From the NCBI GenBank assembly GCA_964586355.1, contig CAZPGO010000043.1:1-32000 (forward strand): 32,000 nt of DNA, in the 5' to 3' direction. The stretch's first letter is position 1. Each line of letters starts with the position of its first letter. Below the pieces are notes generated by a model that searched no databases, was not told the origin of the DNA, and saw only the letters and a list, made by a program, of their open reading frames with translations. The position numbers were made by a program, and so were the translations under genes. Shown one piece after another: positions 3,040 through 26,499 of the stretch. The DNA comes from an uncultured archaeon. Its GTDB lineage: Archaea; Iainarchaeota; Iainarchaeia; Iainarchaeales; CSSED10-239.

Positions 3040-3561
3040 TTATTCGTTTTTTATAGAATCTTTTGGCTCTAATTTTTCTTCTTTGATGATCTCTGTTTTT
3101 TTTACTTCTACATTTTCTTTAGAAGTTTCTTTTTCTATCTTGTCTTTTACAGATTCTTTCTCTACTTTTTTTGTAGATTTATCTGTTTTCTCTTTACTTG
3201 CTTCTGTTTTTTTGTCTTTTCCTGCTTCTTTTTCTAATTTTTCTTTTTTTACTGCATCTTTACCTTTTTTTACTTCTTTTTCTGCAGAAAATTTCTTTGA
3301 GTTTTCTGAATCTTTTAAAAAAACATAATATTTCTCATCTTTTTTCTTAAGAGTTACTGCTACTTTTCTTGGAGGATTTTGTATACTGTTTTTCCAAATA
3401 AAGTTGTTTACTTCTTCTGTAATAATAATATCTTTTTTTTCTTTTCTGGTATGTTTATTCAAAAAATCAAAGATCATTCTTACAGAATAGTTTGCTCTTT
3501 TTGTTCTTGGCTTATCATCATAAGCTTTTGTTAATGGTATAACATAATTATCGCTTGGCAT
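3040..3561 (-). CDS. rpl31e: Ribosomal protein L31e with long K/E-rich C-terminal extension
   Basis: The N-terminal ~90 aa (RTKRANYSVRMIFDFLNKHTR...NNFIWKNSIQNPPRKVAV) match the L31e pattern. The remaining ~85 aa are lysine/glutamate low complexity. AGAGTGAT SD. Confidence 0.85.
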   Translation of the reverse strand: MPSDNYVIPLTKAYDDKPRTKRANYSVRMIFDFLNKHTRKEKKDIIITEEVNNFIWKNSIQNPPRKVAVTLKKKDEKYYVFLKDSENSKKFSAEKEVKKGKDAVKKEKLEKEAGKDKKTEASKEKTDKSTKKVEKESVKDKIEKETSKENVEVKKTEIIKEEKLEPKDSIKNE

Positions 3562-4651: not shown

Positions 4652-4972
4652 CTAGGAATTTTGTTTTGTTAGGTTTATTTTTTTGATTTTACCACATTCT
4701 TTACAATGTAAGGTCAAATATTTCTGTAGGGCTCCATTTTTCTTGTGCCTAATTACCCTTATCTTTGTGCTTTCTAAATTTCTTAAAGAAAAACAGTGCT
4801 TACAAAACAGAATATGTGCTTTTTTTGGTAGGCGATAGTTGATTTTTTTAGATAGATCTAAAATTAACATTATGTATTCTTTTATATAGGGATTATCTTC
4901 TTTGGATTGCTCTTTTACAAAGGATAATAAAACATCTATCTTTTCTTTTATTTTTTTAGAATCTTTACGCAT
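4652..4972 (-). CDS. rnp4: RNase P protein component 4 (Rpp21/Rpr2 family zinc ribbon)
   Basis: CKHCFSL...RVIRHKK...LHCKECG is a four-Cys zinc ribbon, and the helical N-terminal half is typical of Rpr2/Rpp21. The start is set at ATG 4970-4972 because the first 20 codons of the track ORF overlap the tRNA-Gly gene. Confidence 0.68.
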   Translation of the reverse strand: MRKDSKKIKEKIDVLLSFVKEQSKEDNPYIKEYIMLILDLSKKINYRLPKKAHILFCKHCFSLRNLESTKIRVIRHKKNGALQKYLTLHCKECGKIKKINLTKQNS

Positions 4973-4991
4973 AAATAGTCTATAATTCCCA

Positions 4992-5063
4992 TGCACTCGC
5001 CGGGTTTCGAACCCGGGTCGAAAGATTGGCAATCTTCCATACTAACCACTATACTACGAGTGC
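4992..5063 (-). tRNA. tRNA-Gly (anticodon GCC)
   Basis: Reverse complement GCACTCGTAGTATAGTGGTTAGTATGGAAGATTGCCAATCTTTCGACCCGGGTTCGAAACCCGGCGAGTGCA folds into a cloverleaf. It has a 7-bp acceptor stem, a GG in the D-loop, anticodon loop TTGCCAA, T-arm CCGGG/TTCGAAA/CCCGG and discriminator A. No CCA is encoded and there is no intron. Confidence 0.9.
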
Positions 5064-5116
5064 ATTTTTTTATTTACTATAATATTTATTATATAAAATC
5101 TTTATAAATAAAATGG

Positions 5117-6928
5117 TTAATAAGGTTTTACTTTTTTAAGACCAGTTACTAGATAACCTACAATTCCTAATACTAAAAAAATTAAGAAAACAAACAAAAT
5201 ATTTTTATTGAACTTTGTTGGTTCAGTAATTTTATATTCTTCAGAGTCTTTCCAAAATTCTATGTTTTCATCATTTACCACGTCACTATTAACATTTTGA
5301 TTTGTAATATTCTGATCTACTTCTTCTTTTATTATTTTATCAGGATAGATTGTTATTAATTTACTATACTCAAAATCTCCTGTTGCCAAAAAACTTATTG
5401 AACTTTTATTTCTATCAATAAGTTCTATTTCCTCTTTATATGTTTTACTTTCATTTGGAGCAATTACGATCTTTTTTTCAAAAACATTACCATTATAGTC
5501 ATATTTAAAATCAATTTGTTTTTCTAGATCTGTTTTGTTTATTAGCTCTGTTTCCATTATTATTTTATTGTTTGCAAAATAAAAAATAGGGTCTGTCACA
5601 AAAAAAATGTCTTGATAAAAAAAATTGGAGTTAGATACTGTGATTTGCAGTTCAAAATCATTTATTTGTGAAGATAATCTAAAAGGATATATATAACCAT
5701 GACTGTTTTCTGGAATTGTTGGAGCAATAAAATAAAAATTTATTTCCTTGGATTCAAATTCATCAAAATAAACAATTTGTTTTGGAGAGTTGGGATAAAG
5801 TAGTTTAAAGTCTTCATGATGTTCTAAATTAAAAAGTATTGCTAATGGTTTTACTGTTGTGTTTTTTAAAGTAAATTTAATATTAATACCTGATTCGGAA
5901 TTTATTTTATCATAATACTCTGGAATTATTGAAATTACATTTGCATAGCCTAACTCTGTAAAATTTTTTTTATCATTTATTCTATAGATTTCATTTCTCT
6001 CATTAAAAACTACATAAACAGAATTAGAGGCAGTAATTATGTCTTGCGATTCTGAAGGATCTGATACTTTGGATATTATTATATGACTAGAATCTACTAG
6101 GCCAACTTCATTATATGTAGGGTCAATTGGAATCCATCCTTGGTTTGGCACATATACTTCTAACCAAGCATGATTTTCCCAATAATAACTAGTGTTAGCA
6201 ATTCCAGTAACATATTTTACTGGAAACCCTTGCGCTCTTAATAACGCTCCTAAGAATATAGAAAATTCATCACAAACACCTTTTCTTTCTGATAAAACTT
6301 TTATTGAATCTTCAACACTATCTGCATAAATAAGATCGTATTCTAAATATTGATGAACCCAGTTTGTAAGATAGGTTATTTGTTCTAAAGCATTATCTGA
6401 ATATTTTAAGGTGTTTGCAAGAGTTATAATTTCTAAATTATCTGATTTTATATATTTTGTAGATTTTCTATATTCTTCAAATTCTGTTATTTTGTTTTTT
6501 AGATCAAATACTTCATTACTAAATACTATTTTGTTTTCTGAAATAATATTTCCTTCTAAATAAAAAACATATTGGAATTTAGTTATTGGTCTAATATTAA
6601 AAACAGCTATTTTGTTTCCAAATTGGTCTTCTGAAATATCTGCAAATATTTTTTCATTATCTTCTAAATAATAAGCTTCAACATTTACTTTTTGTGTTTT
6701 TTGATTGTCTGAAAAAATGGGTGTTTTAAATATAAAGTTATCTCCTTCGTTATATTCTGTAATAGTTATAGGGATTTCTATTAAAAAATTAACATCAATA
6801 TATTTACTTTTGATTGCTGAAAAGTCTAATGCTTCTTCACTTATAGATATTTCGATTTCCTGAGAATAGGATGTAGGAAATATAAATAAAAAAAATATTA
6901 AAAAAATTATTATTTTTGATTTAAACAT
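5117..6928 (-). CDS. Secreted, C-terminally membrane-anchored transglutaminase-like (papain-fold) protein
   Basis: N-terminal signal peptide MFKSKIIIFLIFFLFIFPTSYS. The transglutaminase core triad context is GVCDEFSIFLGALLRAQGFPVKYVTG (Cys), HAWLEVYV (His) and GWIPIDPT (Asp). The C-terminal TM helix is ILFVFLIFLVLGIVGYLV. Confidence 0.8.
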   Translation of the reverse strand: MFKSKIIIFLIFFLFIFPTSYSQEIEISISEEALDFSAIKSKYIDVNFLIEIPITITEYNEGDNFIFKTPIFSDNQKTQKVNVEAYYLEDNEKIFADISEDQFGNKIAVFNIRPITKFQYVFYLEGNIISENKIVFSNEVFDLKNKITEFEEYRKSTKYIKSDNLEIITLANTLKYSDNALEQITYLTNWVHQYLEYDLIYADSVEDSIKVLSERKGVCDEFSIFLGALLRAQGFPVKYVTGIANTSYYWENHAWLEVYVPNQGWIPIDPTYNEVGLVDSSHIIISKVSDPSESQDIITASNSVYVVFNERNEIYRINDKKNFTELGYANVISIIPEYYDKINSESGINIKFTLKNTTVKPLAILFNLEHHEDFKLLYPNSPKQIVYFDEFESKEINFYFIAPTIPENSHGYIYPFRLSSQINDFELQITVSNSNFFYQDIFFVTDPIFYFANNKIIMETELINKTDLEKQIDFKYDYNGNVFEKKIVIAPNESKTYKEEIELIDRNKSSISFLATGDFEYSKLITIYPDKIIKEEVDQNITNQNVNSDVVNDENIEFWKDSEEYKITEPTKFNKNILFVFLIFLVLGIVGYLVTGLKKVKPY

Positions 6929-7030: not shown

Positions 7031-7771
7031 ATGAAATTTAGTAAAACAGAGATAACTTTGTATATTTTAACTTTTTTAGTATTAATTATTGGAATTTTTT
7101 TATTGCCTAATCTTCCAGATAAAATGGCAACTCACTGGAATCAGTTTGGGGTTGCTGATGGTTTTTCTTCTAAGATTATTGGTGTTTTAATTATGCCTAT
7201 TTCTTTTTTGGTTTTGGCTTTTATTTATTCTTTAGTATCTAGGACAAGATACATAAAAGAAGACAAAGATTTGAAAAAACCATTAGACAAACTAATAATT
7301 GCAGCAGCAGTTTTTTTAGTGTTAATTTCGGTTTTGTCTTTTTTATGGAATATTGGTTATAACTTTAATATGTCTTATTTTATAATTCCTCCAACTGGTC
7401 TTCTTTTCTTTTTAATGGGCTACTTAATTATTGATGTTAAACAGAATTATTTTTTTGGCATAAGAAATCTTTGGAGTTTAAAAAATAAAAAAGTCTGGAA
7501 AAATACTCATTATATTTCAGGAATATTGTTTATGATTTTAAGTATAGTTATGCTTTTTAGTATTTTTTTTATCAACTATGCTTTTTATACTTTACTTAGT
7601 GGAGTTCTCTTATTAGTTCTTTTCTCTTTTATTTATTCTTACATAGTTTTTATTAATGAGAAAAAATATAAACAAATCTCTCTAAAAACAGTACTAAAAA
7701 CAAAGTCGTTCTTTTTTTATTTTTTTATAATCAGTATAATAATATTTTTAATATTATTAATAATAAAATAA
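7031..7771 (+). CDS. Polytopic membrane protein, DUF1648/SdpI-like
   Basis: The N-terminal TM helix followed by PDKMATHWNQFGVADGFSSK resembles the DUF1648 motif (P.HWN..G..D). Several further TM helices resemble the SdpI family. GGTGA SD 6 nt upstream of the ATG. Confidence 0.55.
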   Translation: MKFSKTEITLYILTFLVLIIGIFLLPNLPDKMATHWNQFGVADGFSSKIIGVLIMPISFLVLAFIYSLVSRTRYIKEDKDLKKPLDKLIIAAAVFLVLISVLSFLWNIGYNFNMSYFIIPPTGLLFFLMGYLIIDVKQNYFFGIRNLWSLKNKKVWKNTHYISGILFMILSIVMLFSIFFINYAFYTLLSGVLLLVLFSFIYSYIVFINEKKYKQISLKTVLKTKSFFFYFFIISIIIFLILLIIK

Positions 7772-7774
7772 GAG

Positions 7775-7847
7775 TGGATCTGAGCGGAATCGAACCGCCG
7801 ATATTCACCTTGTAAGGGTGACGTCATAACCGCTAGACCACAGATCC
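7775..7847 (-). tRNA. tRNA-Val (anticodon UAC)
   Basis: Reverse complement GGATCTGTGGTCTAGCGGTTATGACGTCACCCTTACAAGGTGAATATCGGCGGTTCGATTCCGCTCAGATCCA. It has a perfect 7-bp acceptor stem, anticodon stem TCACC/GGTGA with loop CTTACAA, T-arm GGCGG/TTCGATT/CCGCT and discriminator A. Confidence 0.9.
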
Positions 7848-13746: not shown

Positions 13747-14103
13747 TCATTCATCCTCTGATTCAAACTCTGGACTTTCATCACTACTATTATCTATTCC
13801 TAAAAAGGTCATAGTAAATGTTGTTTGAAGTCTGCCCCACATTGAGGTTATTTGTTTTGTTTCGTTTAAGTATATGGTTGTATTAAACTCATATCCTCTA
13901 TGCTCATTTTTTACTAAATAGTGTCTATCATATTCTATTTGTGCTCCATTTGATATTAAATTAACAAGTTTAAAAATATAAACACCATCATGTAATCCAA
14001 ACTCATCACCAACAGACACAACTTCTTCTGTTTCTTCTTTTGTATTTTTTGATGGACGTTCCATATCTGTTACTTTTTTTAGTATATGAAATCTTGCTTT
14101 CAT
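13747..14103 (-). CDS. Hypothetical protein with acidic C-terminal tail
   Basis: A 118-aa ORF with an ATG start, packed between kae1 and pth2. The tail is DNSSDESPEFESEDE. I recognise no family. Confidence 0.45.
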   Translation of the reverse strand: MKARFHILKKVTDMERPSKNTKEETEEVVSVGDEFGLHDGVYIFKLVNLISNGAQIEYDRHYLVKNEHRGYEFNTTIYLNETKQITSMWGRLQTTFTMTFLGIDNSSDESPEFESEDE

Positions 14104-14187: not shown

Positions 14188-15186
14188 TCACCAATTTATA
14201 ATAACTTGGTCAGTTCTAAATTTTGGGTTGATTTTTGTATTTTTAAGAGACATTCCTTTTTTATAATTATTAAGATAATGCTTTAGTCCAAGATCTGCAA
14301 TAATCAAACCATTATCTACGCACACAACCATTGGTGGTACAAATAATTTAATTTTATTTTGCTTACAAAATATTTCTAACATTTCTTTTAGGGCTTTACT
14401 TGCTGCAACTCCACCAATTACCATTACTTCTTTTTTTTTTGTGTAAGAAAGTGCTCTATCAGTTACTTCTAACAACATGGCGTAAGCTGTGTGCATAAAG
14501 GAATAAATTAGTTCTTCTTTTGGATATTTGTCTATTAATTTTTTTGAATGTGTTAATAATCCTGAAAAGTTCAGATCCATTCCTTTTACTGAGTATGGTA
14601 GTTCTATATATTTAGATCTATCTGCCTTAAAATAAATTTCATCTAAAACAGGGCCACCAGGAAATCCATAGCCTAAATCTCTTGCAAAGCTATCAAATAA
14701 ATTACCTATACCAATATCTAGTGTTTCTCCAATTATTTTATATCTATTTTCGTCTTTTGCGATTATTTGTGTGTTTGCTCCTGAGGTGTAAATTATAAGA
14801 GGATCTTTTGCGTTTAATAGGGTTTTGCCTATTTCTATGTGGGAGATGCAATGATTTACTCCAATAATTGGTTTGTTATACTTAATTGCTAATACTCTAG
14901 CAACAGTTGCAGAGACTGATAAACAAGGGCCTAATCCTGGACCTTGTGAAAAAGAAATAATATCTATATCTTTTAGTTTTAGGTTTGCTTTTTCTAGTGC
15001 GGAGATTAAAACATTAATAACATTTTCATAATGGAATATGGACACATCAAATGGTTTTAGTCCTTCTCCATCTTTAGAAACAAATTGTTTTTTTTCATTT
15101 GCAAGTATATTGCCATAATTATCAATTATTCCAACTCCTATGGTGTGAGCAGTACTTTCTATTCCTAAACATATTTTTTTTTTCAT
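14188..15186 (-). CDS. kae1: tRNA N6-adenosine threonylcarbamoyltransferase Kae1 (KEOPS catalytic subunit), not fused to Bud32
   Basis: LGIESTAHTIGVGI (ASKHA phosphate-1 motif), the metal-binding HCISHIE, and GGVAASKALKEM. The 332-aa length corresponds to the Kae1 domain only. Confidence 0.9.
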   Translation of the reverse strand: MKKKICLGIESTAHTIGVGIIDNYGNILANEKKQFVSKDGEGLKPFDVSIFHYENVINVLISALEKANLKLKDIDIISFSQGPGLGPCLSVSATVARVLAIKYNKPIIGVNHCISHIEIGKTLLNAKDPLIIYTSGANTQIIAKDENRYKIIGETLDIGIGNLFDSFARDLGYGFPGGPVLDEIYFKADRSKYIELPYSVKGMDLNFSGLLTHSKKLIDKYPKEELIYSFMHTAYAMLLEVTDRALSYTKKKEVMVIGGVAASKALKEMLEIFCKQNKIKLFVPPMVVCVDNGLIIADLGLKHYLNNYKKGMSLKNTKINPKFRTDQVIINW

Positions 15187-15226: not shown

Positions 15227-17203
15227 TTAATTTCTGTTATTATAACCAGTATATAATTCTTCTAGGGTATTTACATTTGTGTTATTTGGATAAAGTACTC
15301 TAGATACAGAAGTTTTACAATCACAAAGTCCTTGTTTACAACAGTTATAAAGTGGTCTTAATTTTTCATACTCTTTATTATTTGGATTACATAGTTTATC
15401 ATAAACTACAAAACTATTATCTAGGTCCTTAAACTCACAATAATACCCATCAAAACAACTATAACATTTTTTTGTGCTTACCCAATATAGAATATTATTT
15501 TTTTCTATTGTTTTATATTCTTCTTCTGAAAATAATGTAATTCTGTCTTGTAAGATTCCTTGTTGAAAGGTCAAATACTCATCTAGATTTTCTAGCCCTA
15601 CTTTTTTTCCTACCATATGTAGAATTTGATCTCTAGAAGATATGTTTCCTAAATATAATGCTGCATGAGTATATTGTCTATCTCGTCCTACCATATCTTT
15701 TTTTTTTACAAGTTCTAAATTGTTTATGGAATTATCATTTAGTCTATAAAGATAATCACTTGTTGGAATATAGATTCCTAAGATCACTCCAGGAATTAAG
15801 GTTAATGGCAAATTACTTTCTTTTTCCCAAATTACTTTGTTTTCATATATTAGATCCCAAGCATTTGCTTTTATGTAGTTAAGACCAAAAATATTTCTTG
15901 CAGTATCTACTGCAACTTTTGAGCATAAAAAGGGTCTTGGGAGATATAAGCCATTACAGTTTTTATTTGTTTGATCTATTACACAATTATATTTTAAAAT
16001 ATCTGAATTAGAGAGTCTTTTTTCAGGGACTATAATGGTTTTTGTTTCTGGTAATGGACACATTTGTAATAAAAAATTATTATCATTTGGATATACGGTT
16101 ATAGAAACAGAACCACCTAATCCTGGTTTTTCTAAATCTCCAACAGTTTCTGCTAATAATGATGGATCGTATTCTCCAGATAAGCATCTCATTCTATATG
16201 TGGATTTATAATAGGTTGTGTAATTTGCTATAATTTTGTCTTTTAAAGTTGTATTATTATATCTTTGTGTGCTCAAAACCTCTTTTAAAACAAGATATTT
16301 TGCCATCTTTACTGCAATTTGTAGATCTGCATTATTACTTACTTTTTCATCATAGTTTGTTATTCCAAATCTAAATCTTATTGGCATAGAGGTATATTTG
16401 TATGAAAAACAAGTAGCATAAAAAAGGTCTACAGAGTCATGATGTGTTTGAAGCAAATTATACCAATTTGAAATAATTCTATTTAGCTCAAATGGTTTGT
16501 TTGAGTTTGCTGATTCTGATTCAATAACTTTAATTATATTTTTATATAAAACTGCTCCCATAAGAGCACTAGCATAGGGATTTCTGTTTTCTTTTATTTC
16601 GTTTGCTAGTTGCCTATATTCAGAATCTGAGTCTATAATGTTATTTTTGCCTCCAAATGTGGATCCATATCTGTTTCTTTGTATATCTTCATTTATGGTT
16701 AAAAGATCTGTTTCTTTAAAGATAGATTCTAAGTATTTTGTATTTCTGAGTTTAGATTCTTTAGAAAGAACAATATCATTATACCAAACAGGACCTATTT
16801 GACCAATACCTTTAAACAAATTATCAGAACTTATAAGACCTATTCTTTGATTTTTATTTTTCCAAGCAGAGCACCCAGATTCTGCTGACATCATTGCAAA
16901 GTATTGAACGGTTTCTTCTTCTGTAAATTTTAAAGTGTTTGCAATAGTAAAAACTATTCTTAAAAAATCATCTTGACAGTTTTGATAATCACCAACCGCT
17001 TTATCTATCTGCCCACTAATCATTTCTTTTAGTGCTGTTTTTCTTGAAGGTCTTAGATCAAAATCATCAAGATAATTATCAATTACAAGCTCATAATCTT
17101 GCTCTGTGTTTTGTCTATTCGGCTCATTTGGTAAAGATGCATTTATATTAACACTAAACAAAAGCAAAAATAGTAAAGGTATTATGTATTTTTTAAAGAT
17201 CAT
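15227..17203 (-). CDS. Secreted multidomain protein: SLT-like lysozyme motif, Cys/His papain-like (NlpC/P60-like) domain and Cys-rich tail
   Basis: Signal peptide MIFKKYIIPLLFLLLFSVNINA. FAMMSAESGCS...FKGIGQIGPVWYNDI resembles the lytic transglycosylase E-S...GLMQ motifs. Residues ~420-545 (FLCSKVAVD...YTHAALYLGN) are paralogous to the next gene. Eight Cys lie in residues 580-629. The CDS itself is solid; the domain calls are by eye. Confidence 0.65.
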   Translation of the reverse strand: MIFKKYIIPLLFLLLFSVNINASLPNEPNRQNTEQDYELVIDNYLDDFDLRPSRKTALKEMISGQIDKAVGDYQNCQDDFLRIVFTIANTLKFTEEETVQYFAMMSAESGCSAWKNKNQRIGLISSDNLFKGIGQIGPVWYNDIVLSKESKLRNTKYLESIFKETDLLTINEDIQRNRYGSTFGGKNNIIDSDSEYRQLANEIKENRNPYASALMGAVLYKNIIKVIESESANSNKPFELNRIISNWYNLLQTHHDSVDLFYATCFSYKYTSMPIRFRFGITNYDEKVSNNADLQIAVKMAKYLVLKEVLSTQRYNNTTLKDKIIANYTTYYKSTYRMRCLSGEYDPSLLAETVGDLEKPGLGGSVSITVYPNDNNFLLQMCPLPETKTIIVPEKRLSNSDILKYNCVIDQTNKNCNGLYLPRPFLCSKVAVDTARNIFGLNYIKANAWDLIYENKVIWEKESNLPLTLIPGVILGIYIPTSDYLYRLNDNSINNLELVKKKDMVGRDRQYTHAALYLGNISSRDQILHMVGKKVGLENLDEYLTFQQGILQDRITLFSEEEYKTIEKNNILYWVSTKKCYSCFDGYYCEFKDLDNSFVVYDKLCNPNNKEYEKLRPLYNCCKQGLCDCKTSVSRVLYPNNTNVNTLEELYTGYNNRN

Positions 17204-17259
17204 ATTTTTTTCACAATTATAGTATAAATAAAATATAGCTTACAAAATAAATATATATA

Positions 17260-18021
17260 CTACTTTCTTGGTAAAATGATCTCAATTAACTCGTTTTCTT
17301 CCAAATATTTATTTATTTCAAAGATCTGCACTTTTTCTTTTTCTAGGCTTATAACAGATTGGTTATTATCTATTTTTCCTACATATAAAACAACATGTGT
17401 ATAATCATATTCTGATAGATTTAAAAGATTTAAAAAATCTTTATTTTCTTTTGTTTTTATTCCTAAGATAGATCCTTCTGGTATTTGTGAATTATCTATT
17501 TTATTGTCTTTATATTTATTCCAAACAACAATATTATTTTCTTTTGTATTTAAAAGCCAAGCATGGTCTAAATCATAATTGATATTATAAACTTTTTCTG
17601 CAAGAATTACTACTAGTTGTGCACAATAGTTGTTTTTTTTTATATAAACTCCTTGACAGATTTCTCCAACTTTACATTCTCCAATTGCTTTTATAATTTC
17701 TTCTGAAAGTATTCTTTCTGGAATCACCACATTTTCTTTTTTAAGATTTCTTTCAAAACTATTAAAAAAATGTAAAAAATCATAATCTATTATTGTTGGT
17801 ATTTTTGAAAGTATTTTTTGAGAAACAGTAAACAAATCTAAAATAATCTGTTTATCTTCTTCTATTTCTATTTGTTCTGATTCTACTTCTTGTGCATAGC
17901 AATTACTTAAAAACAGAATTACAATTAATAAGAGTAATATTTTTTTCACTAATTTTCTACCTTTTTTGTATTTTCTAAAGATTTTAGTTCTAAAATGTTT
18001 ATAAATTGATTTTTTATACAA
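17260..18021 (-). CDS. Secreted or membrane-anchored Cys/His papain-like (NlpC/P60-like) protein, paralogue of the C-terminal half of 15227-17203
   Basis: NYCAQLVVILAEKVYNINYDLDHAW...IPEGSILGI...YDYTHVVLYVGK aligns with FLCSKVAVDTARNIFGLNYIKANAW...IPGVILGI...RQYTHAALYLGN. The track start at 18021 is TTG. An alternative GTG at 17947-17949, preceded by AGGTAG, would give a classical signal peptide (M)KKILLLLIVILFLSNCYA and leave a 113-bp divergent promoter region with cysS. Confidence 0.62.
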   Translation of the reverse strand: MYKKSIYKHFRTKIFRKYKKGRKLVKKILLLLIVILFLSNCYAQEVESEQIEIEEDKQIILDLFTVSQKILSKIPTIIDYDFLHFFNSFERNLKKENVVIPERILSEEIIKAIGECKVGEICQGVYIKKNNYCAQLVVILAEKVYNINYDLDHAWLLNTKENNIVVWNKYKDNKIDNSQIPEGSILGIKTKENKDFLNLLNLSEYDYTHVVLYVGKIDNNQSVISLEKEKVQIFEINKYLEENELIEIILPRK

Positions 18022-18062: not shown

Positions 18063-19502
18063 ATGAGCATAAAACTATATAACACAAAAACAAAAAAAAA
18101 AGAAATATTTAAATCACACAAGCCAAATTTACTTAAAATATATGTTTGTGGGGTTACTATTTATGATGATGTTCATATTGGTCATGCTTTCTCTTATATT
18201 AATTATGACATTTTAATTAATTATTTTAAATATTTTTTAGGGTATGAAATATTATATGTAAGAAACATAACAGATGTTGGTCATTTAACAGATGATGGAG
18301 ATTCTGGTGATGACAAAATTGAAAAGCGTGCTCAACTTAGAAAAATTCATCCTATGGAGCTAGTTTATATATATAGCCACAGAATGTGGAAATGTTTTGA
18401 TGCTCTTAAATTATCTAGACCTAATCTTGAACCAACAGCTTCAAGTCACATACTAGAAATGCAAGAATGGATTAAAAAAATGCTAGGGAATGGCTTTGCT
18501 TATGAAGTTAATGGAAATGTTTATTATGATATTTCAAAGTTTAAGGATTATGGAAAATTTGCAAACAAAAAAATTGAGGATTTAGAAAAGAACACAAGAT
18601 TTGAAAATGATTCTAATAAAAAAAACATTCAAGATTTTGCTTTATGGATAAAAGCAGAACCAAAGCACATATTAAAATGGCCCTCTCCTTGGAGTGTTGG
18701 GTATCCAGGGTGGCATCTTGAGTGTTCTGTGATGGGCACTAAATATTTAGGAGAAAAGTTTGATATACATGGTGGAGGAATAGAACATGTCTTTCCACAC
18801 CACCAAAACGAGATTGCTCAAAATTATGGATTTTACCAACACGATGTTGTAAAATATTGGGTACATAGTGCAATGCTAATGGTTAATGGTAAAAAAATGG
18901 GCAAGTCTTTAGGAAATTTCATCACAATAGAGGATTTTCTTAAAAAACATTCTGCTGAAAGTTTAAGATATTTGTTTAGTACTGGCCATTATAGAAAGCC
19001 TCAAAACTATACTGAGCAAGCTATCTCTGATTCAGAAAATGCTATTGAGCGAATTAATAAATTTATAAAAAGATTACAGAAAATAAATAACAGCAACGAA
19101 AGTAACTTTGGAAAAGAAATAATTGAGACTACATTAGAAAATTTCAAAAACTCCATGAACGATGATCTAAACACCCCAAGTGCATGGGCTAGCATATGGA
19201 TGCTAGTAAAAGAAATAAATAAGATAATGGACCAAAACAACCTAACCACACAAGAAGCTAATCAAATATTAGATTTCTTACAAAAAGTTAATCTTGTGTT
19301 TAAGGTTTTTAATTTTGAAATAGAGAATAAAGATAACAGAGAAAAAATAAAAAAAGAAGAAGTTGAAGATCTTATTAAAAAAAGAAAAATTGCAAGAGAA
19401 AATAAGAATTGGGAAGAAGCTGATCTAATAAGATTAAATCTAGAAAAAAAGGGAGTAATATTAAGTGATTCTCCAACAGGAACCTCTTGGCATTATGAAT
19501 AG
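18063..19502 (+). CDS. cysS: Cysteinyl-tRNA synthetase
   Basis: Class I HIGH motif (VHIGHAFSYI), KMSKS variant (KMGKSLGN), GWHLECS and HGGGIEHVFPHHQNEIAQ. No SD is visible. TTTTAATAT about 25 nt upstream of the ATG could be a TATA box for a leaderless mRNA. Confidence 0.93.
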   Translation: MSIKLYNTKTKKKEIFKSHKPNLLKIYVCGVTIYDDVHIGHAFSYINYDILINYFKYFLGYEILYVRNITDVGHLTDDGDSGDDKIEKRAQLRKIHPMELVYIYSHRMWKCFDALKLSRPNLEPTASSHILEMQEWIKKMLGNGFAYEVNGNVYYDISKFKDYGKFANKKIEDLEKNTRFENDSNKKNIQDFALWIKAEPKHILKWPSPWSVGYPGWHLECSVMGTKYLGEKFDIHGGGIEHVFPHHQNEIAQNYGFYQHDVVKYWVHSAMLMVNGKKMGKSLGNFITIEDFLKKHSAESLRYLFSTGHYRKPQNYTEQAISDSENAIERINKFIKRLQKINNSNESNFGKEIIETTLENFKNSMNDDLNTPSAWASIWMLVKEINKIMDQNNLTTQEANQILDFLQKVNLVFKVFNFEIENKDNREKIKKEEVEDLIKKRKIARENKNWEEADLIRLNLEKKGVILSDSPTGTSWHYE

Positions 19503-19504
19503 TT

Positions 19505-19816
19505 TTATTTTTCAATCAGAACTTCTTCTGTGTTGTTTTCTTTAATTATGATAAAATCTATTTCTGTATTTTTTAATTCTTTAAAATAATATTTTGCAAG
19601 TGATTCCATGCCTTTATAATTTTTTATTAATGTAAATAGATCTTTATCTCTTATTTTAAAATTAAATTCCTCTAACTTTTTTCTTTCAAGATTAAGATCT
19701 ATATTTTTTATTCTTCCATTAATTAATTTGCCTCTAAAACCTAAACCTATGGTAAATTGTAAAGGGTGGTTTTTATGTGTAAATGTTAGTGTGGAATAAC
19801 ATATCGCTTGATTCAT
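19505..19816 (-). CDS. Hypothetical protein
   Basis: A 103-aa ORF with an ATG preceded by AGTGAT SD, lying 11 nt downstream of the 155-aa ORF. I recognise no family. Confidence 0.45.
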   Translation of the reverse strand: MNQAICYSTLTFTHKNHPLQFTIGLGFRGKLINGRIKNIDLNLERKKLEEFNFKIRDKDLFTLIKNYKGMESLAKYYFKELKNTEIDFIIIKENNTEEVLIEK

Positions 19817-19827
19817 AAAATCACTAT

Positions 19828-20295
19828 CTAAAAGGTTGGTACTTGATGATGTGTTTTACTAAATGCTATAGCAAAACAATTTTTTTCTCTTGGTTTTCTA
19901 GACTGCATAGCTAAAATATTTTCAAAAACTAAGATACCAATTGCAACTTGTGTTGGTGTATATCCTGCAAGTAGTAATTCTTCTGGTCTTGCTCTTGCTT
20001 CTGCTCCTCTAACCACAACACTTTTTACAACCCCTTCTAGAGTTTTTGTGTTTTTTAGATCTCTAAGTCTTGATGTTTTTAAGTAAGTAACAGTGCTTTT
20101 ATCTGGTGTAAAACTTTTTGCATTTGTTTTTAAGTTCTTTATCTCAGAAATTTTGCCTAAAAGTCCAGACACCCCAAAATTTTGTTCTAGTTCTATCACT
20201 TTTTTAATATTGGTAATTGCTTTTTGTGATTTCTTATTTACTGATTTTATATTTTTTTTACTAATTATTCTTTTTGCAATTGGTTTTGGTTTCAT
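19828..20295 (-). CDS. Hypothetical protein with basic N-terminus
   Basis: A 155-aa ORF with an ATG preceded by GAGAGGT SD. The N-terminal ~35 aa are K-rich. The C-terminal core is VVRGAEARARPEELLLAGYTPTQVAIGILVFENILAM. I cannot assign a family confidently. Confidence 0.5.
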   Translation of the reverse strand: MKPKPIAKRIISKKNIKSVNKKSQKAITNIKKVIELEQNFGVSGLLGKISEIKNLKTNAKSFTPDKSTVTYLKTSRLRDLKNTKTLEGVVKSVVVRGAEARARPEELLLAGYTPTQVAIGILVFENILAMQSRKPREKNCFAIAFSKTHHQVPTF

Positions 20296-24954: not shown

Positions 24955-26325
24955 TTACTTATTTTTAGAAAATACAGAATAAATATCATTAATAAAATTA
25001 ACAACTTTTGTTTGAAGGTTTTCAGTACTTACAAAATCAACACCTTCCTTTTTAAATTCATTCATAACATCTGTAATTATTTCAGGATTATATTCTTGAG
25101 ACACTAAAAAGGATTCTAGTTGAGATTTTGTGTATTTTTTTGCATATGGTTTTAAAAATTCAAATAAGAATCTAATTTGTTTCATATATTTTTCATACTT
25201 CTCTTTCTCTTTTTTTGATTCTATTTTTAAATTAAAATTTTTTGGCAAAGTTAGATTTTCTGAAGAGATTATGTTATTTCCTTTATTTGAATTATCATCA
25301 TTTAAACGATTAATATTTAATTTTTTTTGCCTTTTTTCTAAAACATCTATTTTTTTATAGATCTCATTTATTTGACCATAAACTTCTTTTAAGGACAAAA
25401 ATTCGTCATGAATTTTTGATAAGAAAAGCTTAGTCATTTTTTCATTTGCTGTGCTTGGTAAATTTGATTTTTTATTAAAATCAACATTATCTTCTTTAAT
25501 TAGGTTAGTTAATATGCTTTCAGCAACTTGTTTACTAAAACCATTTTCTACTAATAGTTTTTTTATAAATTCTGAGTCTGTTTTTATTTTTAATAAATAT
25601 CTAATAGTGTTTTTTATGTTGGTTATATGTTCTTGTTGTTTTTTTGCTTTTTTTAATACTGCCATTCTTTCTTGATTAAGTAGTTTTATATCTTTTATAC
25701 CAAGCAAATTTAAATAAAAAGACTGAGGTAGTCTAATAATCAAAAAACCTTCAATAAAGAACAAACAAAAAATAACAAAAGCTATTGCAAAAGGTATAAG
25801 TGTTTCTTTTAAAAATAAAAAATTAGGTAAAAGTATTATTAAAAAATAAACACCAATAGATAATATAAAACCAAATATCCAATAGATATAACGAACAGTT
25901 CTTATTTTTTTTATATGTTTAATAATATTTTCAGCAGTCTCAAAATCCATCCCAATATATTCTACAAAATGTTTTATTGATTCTTTTGAGTATTTTTCTT
26001 TTATTATAAAAAAAATTAATTTTTTAATAGTTACAACTAATTTATTTATTTGTGCCTCATTATTTTCTGAGTCTACAAGGTCTTCTAAAGCATTTAATTT
26101 AACTTTATTTTTTTTTGCTAATAACAAAAGACCTATTTTTGGAATTTTGGAAATCAGACAACCTACAAAAAAAAAGAGAAAAATAATTATTAATGGCAAA
26201 ACTAATTCTAGATACCAAATCTCTTTAATATTTGAAAAAAAGGACACATAATGTACTAACAAATAAATAATTATGGAAAATATAAGACCAAATATCCAAT
26301 AAAATAGTTTTTTATTTATAGCCAT
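24955..26325 (-). CDS. Hypothetical membrane protein with internally duplicated 2-TM plus helical module
   Basis: AGGTGT SD. YWIFGLIFSIIIYLL...(2 TM)...KESIKHFVEYIGMDFETAENIIKHIKK is repeated as YWIFGFILSIGVYFL...(2 TM)...DSEFIKKLLVENGFSKQVAESILTNLIK. A third soluble copy is KSQLESFLVSQEYNPEIITDVMNEFKK. Confidence 0.62.
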   Translation of the reverse strand: MAINKKLFYWIFGLIFSIIIYLLVHYVSFFSNIKEIWYLELVLPLIIIFLFFFVGCLISKIPKIGLLLLAKKNKVKLNALEDLVDSENNEAQINKLVVTIKKLIFFIIKEKYSKESIKHFVEYIGMDFETAENIIKHIKKIRTVRYIYWIFGFILSIGVYFLIILLPNFLFLKETLIPFAIAFVIFCLFFIEGFLIIRLPQSFYLNLLGIKDIKLLNQERMAVLKKAKKQQEHITNIKNTIRYLLKIKTDSEFIKKLLVENGFSKQVAESILTNLIKEDNVDFNKKSNLPSTANEKMTKLFLSKIHDEFLSLKEVYGQINEIYKKIDVLEKRQKKLNINRLNDDNSNKGNNIISSENLTLPKNFNLKIESKKEKEKYEKYMKQIRFLFEFLKPYAKKYTKSQLESFLVSQEYNPEIITDVMNEFKKEGVDFVSTENLQTKVVNFINDIYSVFSKNK

Positions 26326-26405
26326 TAATACACCTGTGCTTTATTATTTAAGATTAATTAAATAGATAAACAAAACATATAAAAAACAATTTGTAACAAA
26401 AAAAA

Positions 26406-26480
26406 TGGAAGATGCAGGATTCGAACCTGCGACCCTTGGTGTATAAGACCAATGCTCTGACCAGACTGAGCTAAACTTCC
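26406..26480 (-). tRNA. tRNA-Ile (anticodon UAU)
   Basis: Reverse complement GGAAGTTTAGCTCAGTCTGGTCAGAGCATTGGTCTTATACACCAAGGGTCGCAGGTTCGAATCCTGCATCTTCCA. It has D-arm GCTC/GAGC, anticodon stem TTGGT/ACCAA with loop CTTATAC (TAT at 34-36), T-arm GCAGG/TTCGAAT/CCTGC and discriminator A. There is one U6-U67 mismatch in the acceptor stem. Confidence 0.85.
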
Positions 26481-26499
26481 AATATTTAAAATTGTCTCC

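Follow-up and report, generated by a model that had tools for sequence, protein, structure and literature searches.

Two adjacent genes of an uncultured archaeon, here called S and L, raise the question of whether an organism of the DPANN type exports enzymes that cut the wall of another cell. They lie in a stretch of 32,000 nucleotides (positions 1 to 32,000 of contig CAZPGO010000043.1, assembly GCA_964586355.1; Iainarchaeota, CSSED10-239), termed the window herein, which has a GC content of ∼26% and encodes the archaeal markers prefoldin, eIF-6, L31e, S19e, a thermosome subunit, PTH2, and a Kae1-type TsaD. According to the list of open reading frames (ORFs), gene L (15227-17203, minus strand) encodes a protein of 658 amino acids from an ATG start codon, and gene S (17260-18021, minus strand) encodes one of 253 amino acids from a TTG at position 18021; both are annotated as "hypothetical protein" in public sources. 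A preliminary description, made from the sequence alone, had proposed that the two are secreted tandem paralogues that share a Cys/His peptidase module and might breach the envelope of another cell. Our analysis places this module in the NlpC/P60 superfamily with high confidence, and we give a little better than an even chance to the complete proposal, namely that S and L would be exported NlpC/P60-like hydrolases that cleave the peptidoglycan of a neighboring bacterium.

Two adjacent paralogues with a common Cys/His module

The proposed tandem paralogy was borne out by a pairwise BLASTP comparison, in which residues 390 to 544 of L aligned with residues 98 to 240 of S (27% identity, 50% positives, E = 3e-11), slightly more than the ∼420-545 of L and ∼128-240 of S noted before; the length shared by the two proteins is about 160 amino acids. 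All sequence blocks that had been quoted for the pair were found (FLCSKVAVD in L and NYCAQLVVI in S, NY..AW, V.W.K, IP.G.ILGI, and YTHAALYLGN in L and YTHVVLYVGK in S). In L, the domain was delimited to residues 386-560 (15524-16048, minus strand) on the basis of BLASTP, AlphaFold2 (AF2), Foldseek, hhalign, and conservation, and in S to residues 94-253 (17263-17742, minus strand) on the basis of BLASTP and conservation. The candidate triad of L consists of Cys427 (15923-15925), His513 (15665-15667), and His529 (15617-15619), with verified coordinates, and the candidate residues of S are Cys133 (17623-17625), His209 (17395-17397), and, at the third position, Ser225 (17347-17349), all on the minus strand. 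Duplication within the family gave rise to the pair. Overlooked in the preliminary description was that L is a multidomain protein, with a recurrent N-terminal module and a Cys-rich C terminus besides the shared domain.

Signal sequences, which had been claimed for both N termini, were likewise recognized here, as judged by eye: each N terminus opens with basic residues, rich in Lys, continues as a hydrophobic run, and ends in a motif of small residues, as in Sec signal peptides. In L, the signal-peptide-like segment covers residues 1-22 (MIFKKYIIPLLFLLLFSVNINA; 17138-17203, minus strand) and is followed by S at a cleavage-type site (after …NINA); in S, the corresponding segment, (V/M)KKILLLLIVILFLSNCYA (17893-17949, minus strand), is followed by Q at such a site (after …NCYA). 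Both proteins look exported, and they would leave their DPANN-type cell by the Sec route. Public gene calls (P0002 and P0003) start S 24 codons later, at a GTG at position 17949, giving a protein of 229 amino acids, and we consider this GTG a more likely start than the TTG at 18021. The basic 24-codon extension of S from that TTG (17950-18021, minus strand) is absent from the 229-amino-acid public calls; the S relatives P0004 and P0007 have extensions with KNQFINIL in common, and some lineages may translate such an extension.

To see how the module is conserved beyond the pair, we searched 1.84 billion cluster representatives exhaustively with HMMER, using a six-sequence profile of the shared module (E ≤ 1e-3). 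This yielded 131 relatives, most of them 150 to 220 amino acids long and matched from the Cys block to past the His block; a word-indexed homologue search with S and L returned close orthologues only, and ten relatives with a large alignment. Conservation was read from the extracted domains, aligned as 134 sequences. The Cys and His on which the peptidase reading had been built proved invariant in the ∼133 homologues: the candidate nucleophile (Cys133 of S, Cys427 of L) was found in 132 of 132 aligned sequences and the candidate His (His209 of S, His513 of L) in 133 of 133, while the third position is a His in 94 sequences (72%), a Glu in 13, and a Gln in 9. Also conserved, to at least 80%, are A141, F145, an Ala-Trp pair, a Pro-Gly, two more Gly residues, a Ser, and a Thr before the His. 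The family signature reads C[SA]xYARxAA…LFG…[DN]AW…LxPGxIxGxYxPxS…YTHVxLYxG…HQxG. In every member the Cys comes before the His, and 49 of 71 full-length-looking members have a signal-like N terminus.

An additional pair of Cys residues is located just upstream from the candidate nucleophile (C407/C416 in L, within 15923-16048; C116/C122 in S, within 17623-17742; both minus strand). These residues are invariant in six aligned sequences of the S and L lineages, and each of the two columns holds a Cys in only 11 of the 134 family sequences; they possibly form a lineage-specific disulfide hairpin.

The third position of S raises the alternative that S, or L as well, has lost its catalysis and retains only the fold, serving in binding or regulation. 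Ser225 stands in place of the His, so that S has a Cys/His dyad only, and the Ser is present in all four S-lineage sequences of the family alignment (S of the window, P0003, P0004, and P0007). S also departs from the family at conserved positions (Tyr136→Leu, Pro191→Lys, and Ser193→Asn) and carries a deletion ahead of the His block, and these features count against S being a fully equipped enzyme. Set against them, the Cys and His were retained in five of five S-lineage sequences examined, down to 49% identity, as in the rest of the family, and the triad of L is complete. Selection also speaks against a dead module: relative to the related locus L001, the ratio of nonsynonymous to synonymous substitution rates (dN/dS) is 0.38 for S, with 0.37 for L and 0.07 and 0.08 for the flanking genes Kae1 and CysRS, ratios that are approximate at a dS of ∼0.75 to 1.1, which is near saturation. 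S and L are under purifying selection, yet they evolve much faster than the genes that flank them. We regard a loss of catalysis as quite improbable; S might rather be a specialized or weakened paralogue that works with the dyad.

A divergent family and its place in the NlpC/P60 superfamily

Three independent lines of evidence bear on the fold of the module: profile-profile comparison with hhalign, the topology predicted by AF2, and Foldseek. For the first, the family was compared with an alignment of four NlpC/P60 paralogues of Escherichia coli K-12 (MepS, NlpC, MepH, and YafL), and the match (probability 94.2%, P = 1.1e-7, 101 columns) was in a register that puts the family Cys on the Cys of DCSG, LxPGxI on LxxGDL, THVxLYxG on HVGIYxG, and xHQ on FxHA. 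Controls remained at 0.2% each for the reversed template, for SLT, and for lysozyme. The lineage of the window matched the rest of the family with 99.9% (P = 2e-31), and the family without that lineage matched NlpC/P60 with 94.8% (P = 5e-8). An AF2 model of residues 386-560 of L, based on a 106-sequence alignment, reached a predicted local distance difference test (pLDDT) score of 85 and a predicted template modeling (pTM) score of 0.81 and has a papain-like topology; in its numbering, Cys42 opens a helix (42-54), His128 opens a strand (128-136), and His144 lies within a strand (139-146). When this model was compared with the PDB using Foldseek, 7 of the 10 top matches were NlpC/P60 or CHAP proteins (4xcm, 6sqx, 8er5, 3m1u, and CwlO; the CHAP lysin Ly7917), so that the shared domain fell among hydrolases and not in another fold, and Tae2, a C39 peptidase domain, and Gsp amidase followed lower down. 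The top-ranked matches in BFVD included phage hydrolases, endolysins, NlpC/P60 and CHAP proteins, and tail lysins.

Several results pull in the other direction. No Pfam or NCBIfam model reached its threshold for S or L: at E ≤ 10, Pfam returned no family for L and only Peptidase_C92 and LED_rpt for S, without NLPC_P60 or CHAP, and NCBIfam gave nothing relevant. Among 121 relatives, likewise, none had a family domain above a Pfam threshold, and the NLPC_P60 model (PF00877) did not match the family consensus; the stray matches below threshold (C92 twice, CHAP once with E = 0.0011, and NLPC_P60 once with E = 0.0021) all belong to papain-like amidase families. The Foldseek statistics are weak, with best E values of 0.43 (PDB) and 0.03 (BFVD), template modeling (TM) scores of 0.4 to 0.5, and no match at E ≤ 1e-3 in either database. 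Searching the PDB with sequence profiles, whether of the L family, of the shared domain, or of the wider family, gave no significant result, the sole match of the family profile at E ≤ 10 being 6biq_A (NlpC/P60; E = 1.4). A profile of the window lineage alone matched NlpC/P60 with only 7%; the link is therefore transitive, via the wider family.

Weighing these results, we hold it to be highly likely that S and L share a Cys/His hydrolase domain that is papain-like, belongs to the NlpC/P60 superfamily, and has the canonical, nonpermuted order of its residues. What stood of the preliminary NlpC/P60 assignment is membership in the superfamily, to which both hhalign and Foldseek point; no Pfam model, PF00877 included, reached its threshold. 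Because no curated model was passed and the Foldseek E values are weak, S and L are, on sequence criteria, a new divergent family within the superfamily, outside PF00877, PF05257, and PF05708 by the thresholds of these models themselves.

The best Pfam match below threshold, Peptidase_C92 (YaeF/YiiX; PF05708), leads to a different proposal, in which the proteins would be phospholipases or acyltransferases that act on the membrane of a host, in the manner of LRAT/PLAAT and YiiX, so that a lipid-auxotrophic symbiont could acquire or rework lipids. It is the only relevant Pfam match of S and of the family consensus (16.4 bits for S, 18.4 for the S domain alone, and 18.1 for the consensus, against a cutoff of 27 bits; E = 0.01, 0.0023, and 0.003), which also tells against a plain NlpC/P60 assignment. 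The His-strand region (PGD...sH.g.y.G) is alike in C92 and the S/L family, and the hhalign match to YiiX/YaeF (66%) was confined to the His half. The annotation of E. coli YiiX names it a putative lipid-binding hydrolase, and LRAT-like acyltransferases belong to the NlpC/P60 superfamily (PMC6403190). The C92 and LRAT branches are, however, circularly permuted, with the His before the Cys (PMC6403190), whereas here the Cys lies ∼76 to 86 residues before the His, and in S no further Cys follows His209. The YiiX-like permuted arrangement, which had been suggested for S and L as one family to consider, was rejected on these grounds. The full-domain match, moreover, goes to the canonical P60-like enzymes (94% versus 66%), and the domains fused to family members are related to peptidoglycan, none of them to lipids; a lipid-directed role appears very unlikely.

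Among characterized proteins, the P60-like DL-endopeptidases (PF00877; MEROPS C40; MepS/Spr of E. coli and LytE, LytF, and CwlO of Bacillus subtilis) have the same catalytic order as the S/L family, with which they also have export and the topology of helix plus β-sheet in common. The family differs from them in being too divergent for PF00877, in its own signature, and in TM scores of only ∼0.4 to 0.5; its Ala-Trp pair and a loop inserted before the His are placed in gaps when hhalign aligns the family with the four E. coli paralogues. CHAP proteins (PF05257), phage lysins, and the Tae effectors of type VI secretion systems (T6SS) are Cys…His papain-like wall hydrolases as well, and Ly7917, Gsp amidase, Tae2, and phage CHAP lysins are among the weak fold matches of the L domain. 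They differ in that S and L have no Pfam CHAP match (one of 121 relatives has one, below threshold), that no relatives were found on viral contigs, and that the window contains no secretion-system genes. An origin of the family from phage lysins was rejected as unsupported, no relatives having been found in a scan of viral contigs.

If S and L follow the mechanism of the superfamily, the Cys at the N terminus of the helix would be the nucleophile, the His at the start of the strand the general base, and the second His, on the next strand, the residue that orients it; L would have the full set (Cys427-His513-His529) and S would have Cys133-His209 and a Ser. The Cys thiolate, activated by the His, would then attack an amide bond, as we infer from the superfamily mechanism (PMC6403190). 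Characterized NlpC/P60 members cut the γ-D-Glu-diamino-acid bond or the MurNAc-L-Ala bond of peptidoglycan (PMC6403190).

Other parts of L and the candidate substrate

The question of what these enzymes might cut leads to the proteins in which the domain is embedded. In other family members it is combined with LysM (two proteins), YkuD (one), and a true Pfam NLPC_P60 domain (one). The last is P0111, a giant surface-type protein of 3,182 amino acids, in which the divergent domain (2840-2975) is followed, 90 residues on, by NLPC_P60 (3065-3151, E = 1.5e-23), and P0027 (1,867 amino acids) unites the divergent domain, a YkuD L,D-transpeptidase domain, and a module like that at the N terminus of L in one protein. 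In further members, the domain is part of a giant protein in which CarboxypepD_reg or Ig-like repeats occur.

The N-terminal module of L (residues ∼60-345; 16169-17026, minus strand) is, from its recurrence and motifs, a candidate lysozyme-like or lytic-transglycosylase-like unit, with Glu108 (codon 16880-16882, minus strand) as the candidate catalytic residue. It recurs in P0021 (811-1089, E = 3e-19), P0027 (1594-1836, E = 1e-17), and, weakly, P0093 (E = 9e-4), and a metagenome scan for it found only two close relatives. In P0021 and P0093, it directly precedes the NlpC/P60-like domain, whereas in P0027 it comes after that domain and YkuD. Five copies of the module (L of the window, P0006, P0021, P0027, and P0093) have E108-S109, G132-I-G-Q-I136, and W140 as invariant residues, P0005 also has the E-S, the G-x-x-Q-I, and the W, and the motif around the Glu-Ser reads (A/S)(Q/A)-E-S across the copies. 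The sequence of P0021, QESQF…NEYGIAQINSEVW, can be set beside that of hen lysozyme, FESNF…TDYGILQINSRWW (hen sequence verified against the PDB), and the pattern ES…GxxQI…W matches the catalytic segment that is common to C-type lysozymes and family-1 lytic transglycosylases. In hhalign comparisons, the module reached P = 0.0067 against hen and human lysozyme and P = 0.0071 against five E. coli SLT domains; both alignments center on the catalytic segment, reversed controls gave 0.67 to 0.74, and SLT against lysozyme C, a benchmark pair of remote relatives, gave P = 0.005 in the same setup.

Other observations speak against a lysozyme-like module. The hhalign values are not significant alone, and the N terminus of L as a three-sequence profile matched SLT with 0%, P ∼0.007 being reached only when P0021, P0027, and P0093 were added. 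The Pfam model Lys (C-type lysozyme) matched the P0021 copy only, with E = 2.9e-4 and 21.5 bits against a cutoff of 27; a profile search of the PDB with the module returned no lysozyme, only noise (such as an integrase and L23); and AF2 modeled full-length L (three sequences) with a pLDDT of 31. We consider it about equally probable that the module is, or is not, a lysozyme-like, glycan-cutting unit with Glu108 as its catalytic residue. At the other end of L, a region with eight Cys residues (residues 575-658, CYSCFDGYYC…CNP…CCKQGLCDC; 15230-15481, minus strand) is conserved in P0005 and P0006, has no homologue beyond the orthologues and no Pfam match, and is possibly a disulfide-rich or metal-binding module. 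L might be read as a lysozyme-like glycan cutter, followed by a peptide-cutting NlpC/P60-like domain and a Cys-rich tail for binding or anchoring.

The fusions to LysM, YkuD, and NLPC_P60, together with the possible lysozyme-like module, make peptidoglycan the likeliest substrate, and, since archaea lack murein, the wall that is cut would be that of a neighboring bacterium; that the target is the peptidoglycan of another cell has, in our estimate, about an even chance. S and L would cut peptide stems locally in that neighbor, and L its glycan strands also, for attachment, for breaching the wall, or for scavenging wall fragments.

A competing target would be pseudomurein or another archaeal wall polymer, the proteins then cutting cross-links in an archaeal host (a methanogen) in the manner of Pei. 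Isopeptide bonds would be within reach of a Cys/His peptidase, and cultured DPANN are described as episymbionts of other archaea (PMC8204110, PMC11537232); an engineered domain derived from LysM is reported, in work cited by PMC12352652, to bind pseudomurein as well as murein. S and L matched no pseudomurein endoisopeptidase model in Pfam (E ≤ 10), and there was no Pei or transglutaminase-type structure among the listed Foldseek matches. A module of the lysozyme/SLT type would not cut the β-1,3 glycan of pseudomurein, which also counts against this target, and bacterial murein is the usual setting of the partner domains YkuD and true NLPC_P60. For the clade itself, the literature proposes bacterial partners (PMC8204110, PMC9723730). 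We consider a pseudomurein-type target highly improbable.

Bacterial peptidoglycan as the target invites comparison with two known systems. CwlT of ICEBs1 is a lysozyme joined to an NlpC/P60 endopeptidase, according to the account of Xu et al. (2014) in PMC6403190 and PMC9324163, and it opens the wall locally during conjugation (PMC9324163). L would match the order of CwlT and of Orf14 of Tn916, bifunctional hydrolases that conjugation requires: a glycan cutter and then a Cys-His-His NlpC/P60 endopeptidase (PMC9324163, PMC6403190), but its lysozyme part is weakly supported, without threshold similarity to known lysozyme families, and L adds a Cys-rich C terminus, an archaeal host, and a setting without conjugation genes nearby. 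Closer in taxonomy, Pacearchaeota and Woesearchaeota carry large extracellular murein lytic-transglycosylase proteins that have been proposed to act on bacterial walls (PMC8204110, PMC9723730). These giants (fam00969 in PMC8204110; GH23 in PMC9723730) have the clade, the extracellular location, and the proposed substrate in common with the S/L family, whose giant members (P0021, P0027, P0029, and P0111) are similar to them in size and repeats; they are defined by SLT/GH23, whereas the S/L family has a peptidase-type domain, of which neither paper speaks, and no Pfam SLT match.

Relatives, gene neighborhood, and meaning

Which organisms carry the family was addressed by a scan of one genome per GTDB species with a single peptide motif from a 10-sequence subset, a narrow sampling of the family. 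It gave seven confirmed loci, and all six full-length ones are in metagenome-assembled genomes (MAGs) of Candidatus Pacearchaeota, Woesearchaeota, or "Nanoarchaeota"; the seventh, in a Vicinamibacterales bacterium, is a match of 35 residues only. Among named genomes, the family is provisionally restricted to DPANN, provisionally because only seven named-genome loci were reached, through one peptide motif. The contig of locus L003, which has a family member, carries an archaeal-type ThrRS editing domain. The domain of life to which L004 belongs could not be told from its context; like the small number of loci, this weakens the case for a DPANN family.

The gene neighborhoods bear on a further alternative, that S and L serve the archaeon's own surface, where they would, for instance, process, anchor, or release proteins of the S-layer or other surface proteins, or take part in cell division; processing of the cell's own surface proteins had already been mentioned in the preliminary description. 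In the window, the pair lies between CysRS (18063-19502, plus strand) and Kae1 (14188-15186, minus strand), and the order CysRS, S, L, Kae1 is preserved in L001, where the orthologues of S and L are 49% and 62% identical (other L orthologues are at 89% and 61%). This arrangement looks vertical and core-like, unlike that of a mobile weapon, no relatives were found in the scan of viral contigs, and a transglutaminase-like protein with a surface anchor is encoded close by and likewise conserved. No L-like partner gene accompanies the small family members of other DPANN loci. In 8 of 10 other loci they have a membrane protein of ∼650 to 700 amino acids downstream (L003, 8710-10767; L004, 8320-10431, minus strand; L014, 7365-9326; L015, 8952-10334; L016, 6576-8510; L017, 5450-7555; L018, 5439-7508; L019, 5454-7547), directly adjoining in L003 and L017 to L019, and ThrRS is upstream in L002, L003, and L016 to L019. 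This synteny of ThrRS, family gene, and membrane protein points to housekeeping at the surface of the cell itself, and in that it opposes an attack on neighbors. The membrane protein, which has a signal peptide, ∼400 amino acids outside, one transmembrane helix near residue 405, and ∼270 amino acids inside, is a possible functional partner of the small members; no Pfam match is on record for it in L003 and L004, and its family has no profile similarity to the N or C terminus of L, SLT, lysozyme, or NlpC/P60.

Against service to the archaeon's own surface stand the fusions of the domain to peptidoglycan-linked LysM, YkuD, and true NLPC_P60, the possible lysozyme-like module of L, a raised dN/dS that fits proteins facing another organism, and the fact that the conserved membrane-protein neighbor was not found in the window. 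We rate this alternative as unlikely. Unlikely to a similar degree, in our view, is the most far-reaching form of the proposed attack on bacterial walls, in which the family would be a vertically inherited, clade-wide part of the cell-contact apparatus of Pacearchaeota and Woesearchaeota and L a CwlT-like "wall drill" with two activities.

Some observations at these loci stand by themselves. The large neighbors in L002, L003, and L004 were considered as homologues of L and rejected; that of L002 is ThrRS, and those of L003 and L004 belong to the membrane-protein family. A Woesearchaeota MAG (L015) contains an independent tandem pair of small members (4848-5432 and 5398-6024, plus strand), and tandem duplication in the family is therefore not unique to the window. 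The transglutaminase-like protein of the window (5117-6928, minus strand; 603 amino acids) has a signal-peptide-like N terminus, a Transglut_core domain (E = 2.4e-21), and a C-terminal hydrophobic anchor and is kept in L001; it is a second exported product of the Cys-hydrolase type, ∼8 kb from S and L, and also has a papain-like Cys-protease fold. Beside its gene, in L001 as well, is that of a 246-amino-acid membrane protein with DUF1648 and SdpI (7031-7771, plus strand); SdpI is an immunity and signal protein against the SdpC toxin in Bacillus. ORFs without a Pfam match are located at 24955-26325 (456 amino acids), 19828-20295 (155), 19505-19816 (103), and 13747-14103 (118), all on the minus strand. 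The 103- and 118-amino-acid ORFs have BLASTP matches in L001, and the 456- and 155-amino-acid ORFs have none in the portion of L001 that was compared, where a gene of 455 residues at the syntenic position is cut by the end of L001. Three tRNA genes (4991-5064, 7774-7847, and 26405-26481, all minus strand) are for Gly-GCC, Val-TAC, and one read as Ile with the anticodon TAT.

As to novelty, the enzyme class is known already and the idea that DPANN attack bacterial walls is published; what is apparently new is an unannotated family that is small, has its own signature, and seems clade specific among named genomes. The term "NlpC" is absent from PMC8204110, PMC9723730, and the 2025 survey of archaeal peptidoglycan hydrolases (PMC12352652), which is no proof of novelty. 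The family was missed by Pfam and NCBIfam, and its alignment-derived signature could become a profile model for annotation. Its proteins are small (150 to 230 amino acids) and tractable, and their substrate, whether murein, pseudomurein, the own surface, or lipid, could reveal the partner cell.

Pacearchaeota and Woesearchaeota make up a large share of archaeal diversity, and the main molecular hint of their contact with bacteria has so far been the large lytic-transglycosylase proteins (PMC8204110, PMC9723730). A second exported class resembling wall hydrolases would add a peptide-cutting activity to the repertoire of the clade. If the proteins only serviced the archaeon's own surface, the family would be a routine extension of a very large superfamily. 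If instead the two-activity "wall drill" were true, these archaea would routinely open the peptidoglycan of bacterial partners, and the family would provide direct molecular evidence that archaea of the largest uncultured DPANN clades live as episymbionts on bacteria or prey on them.

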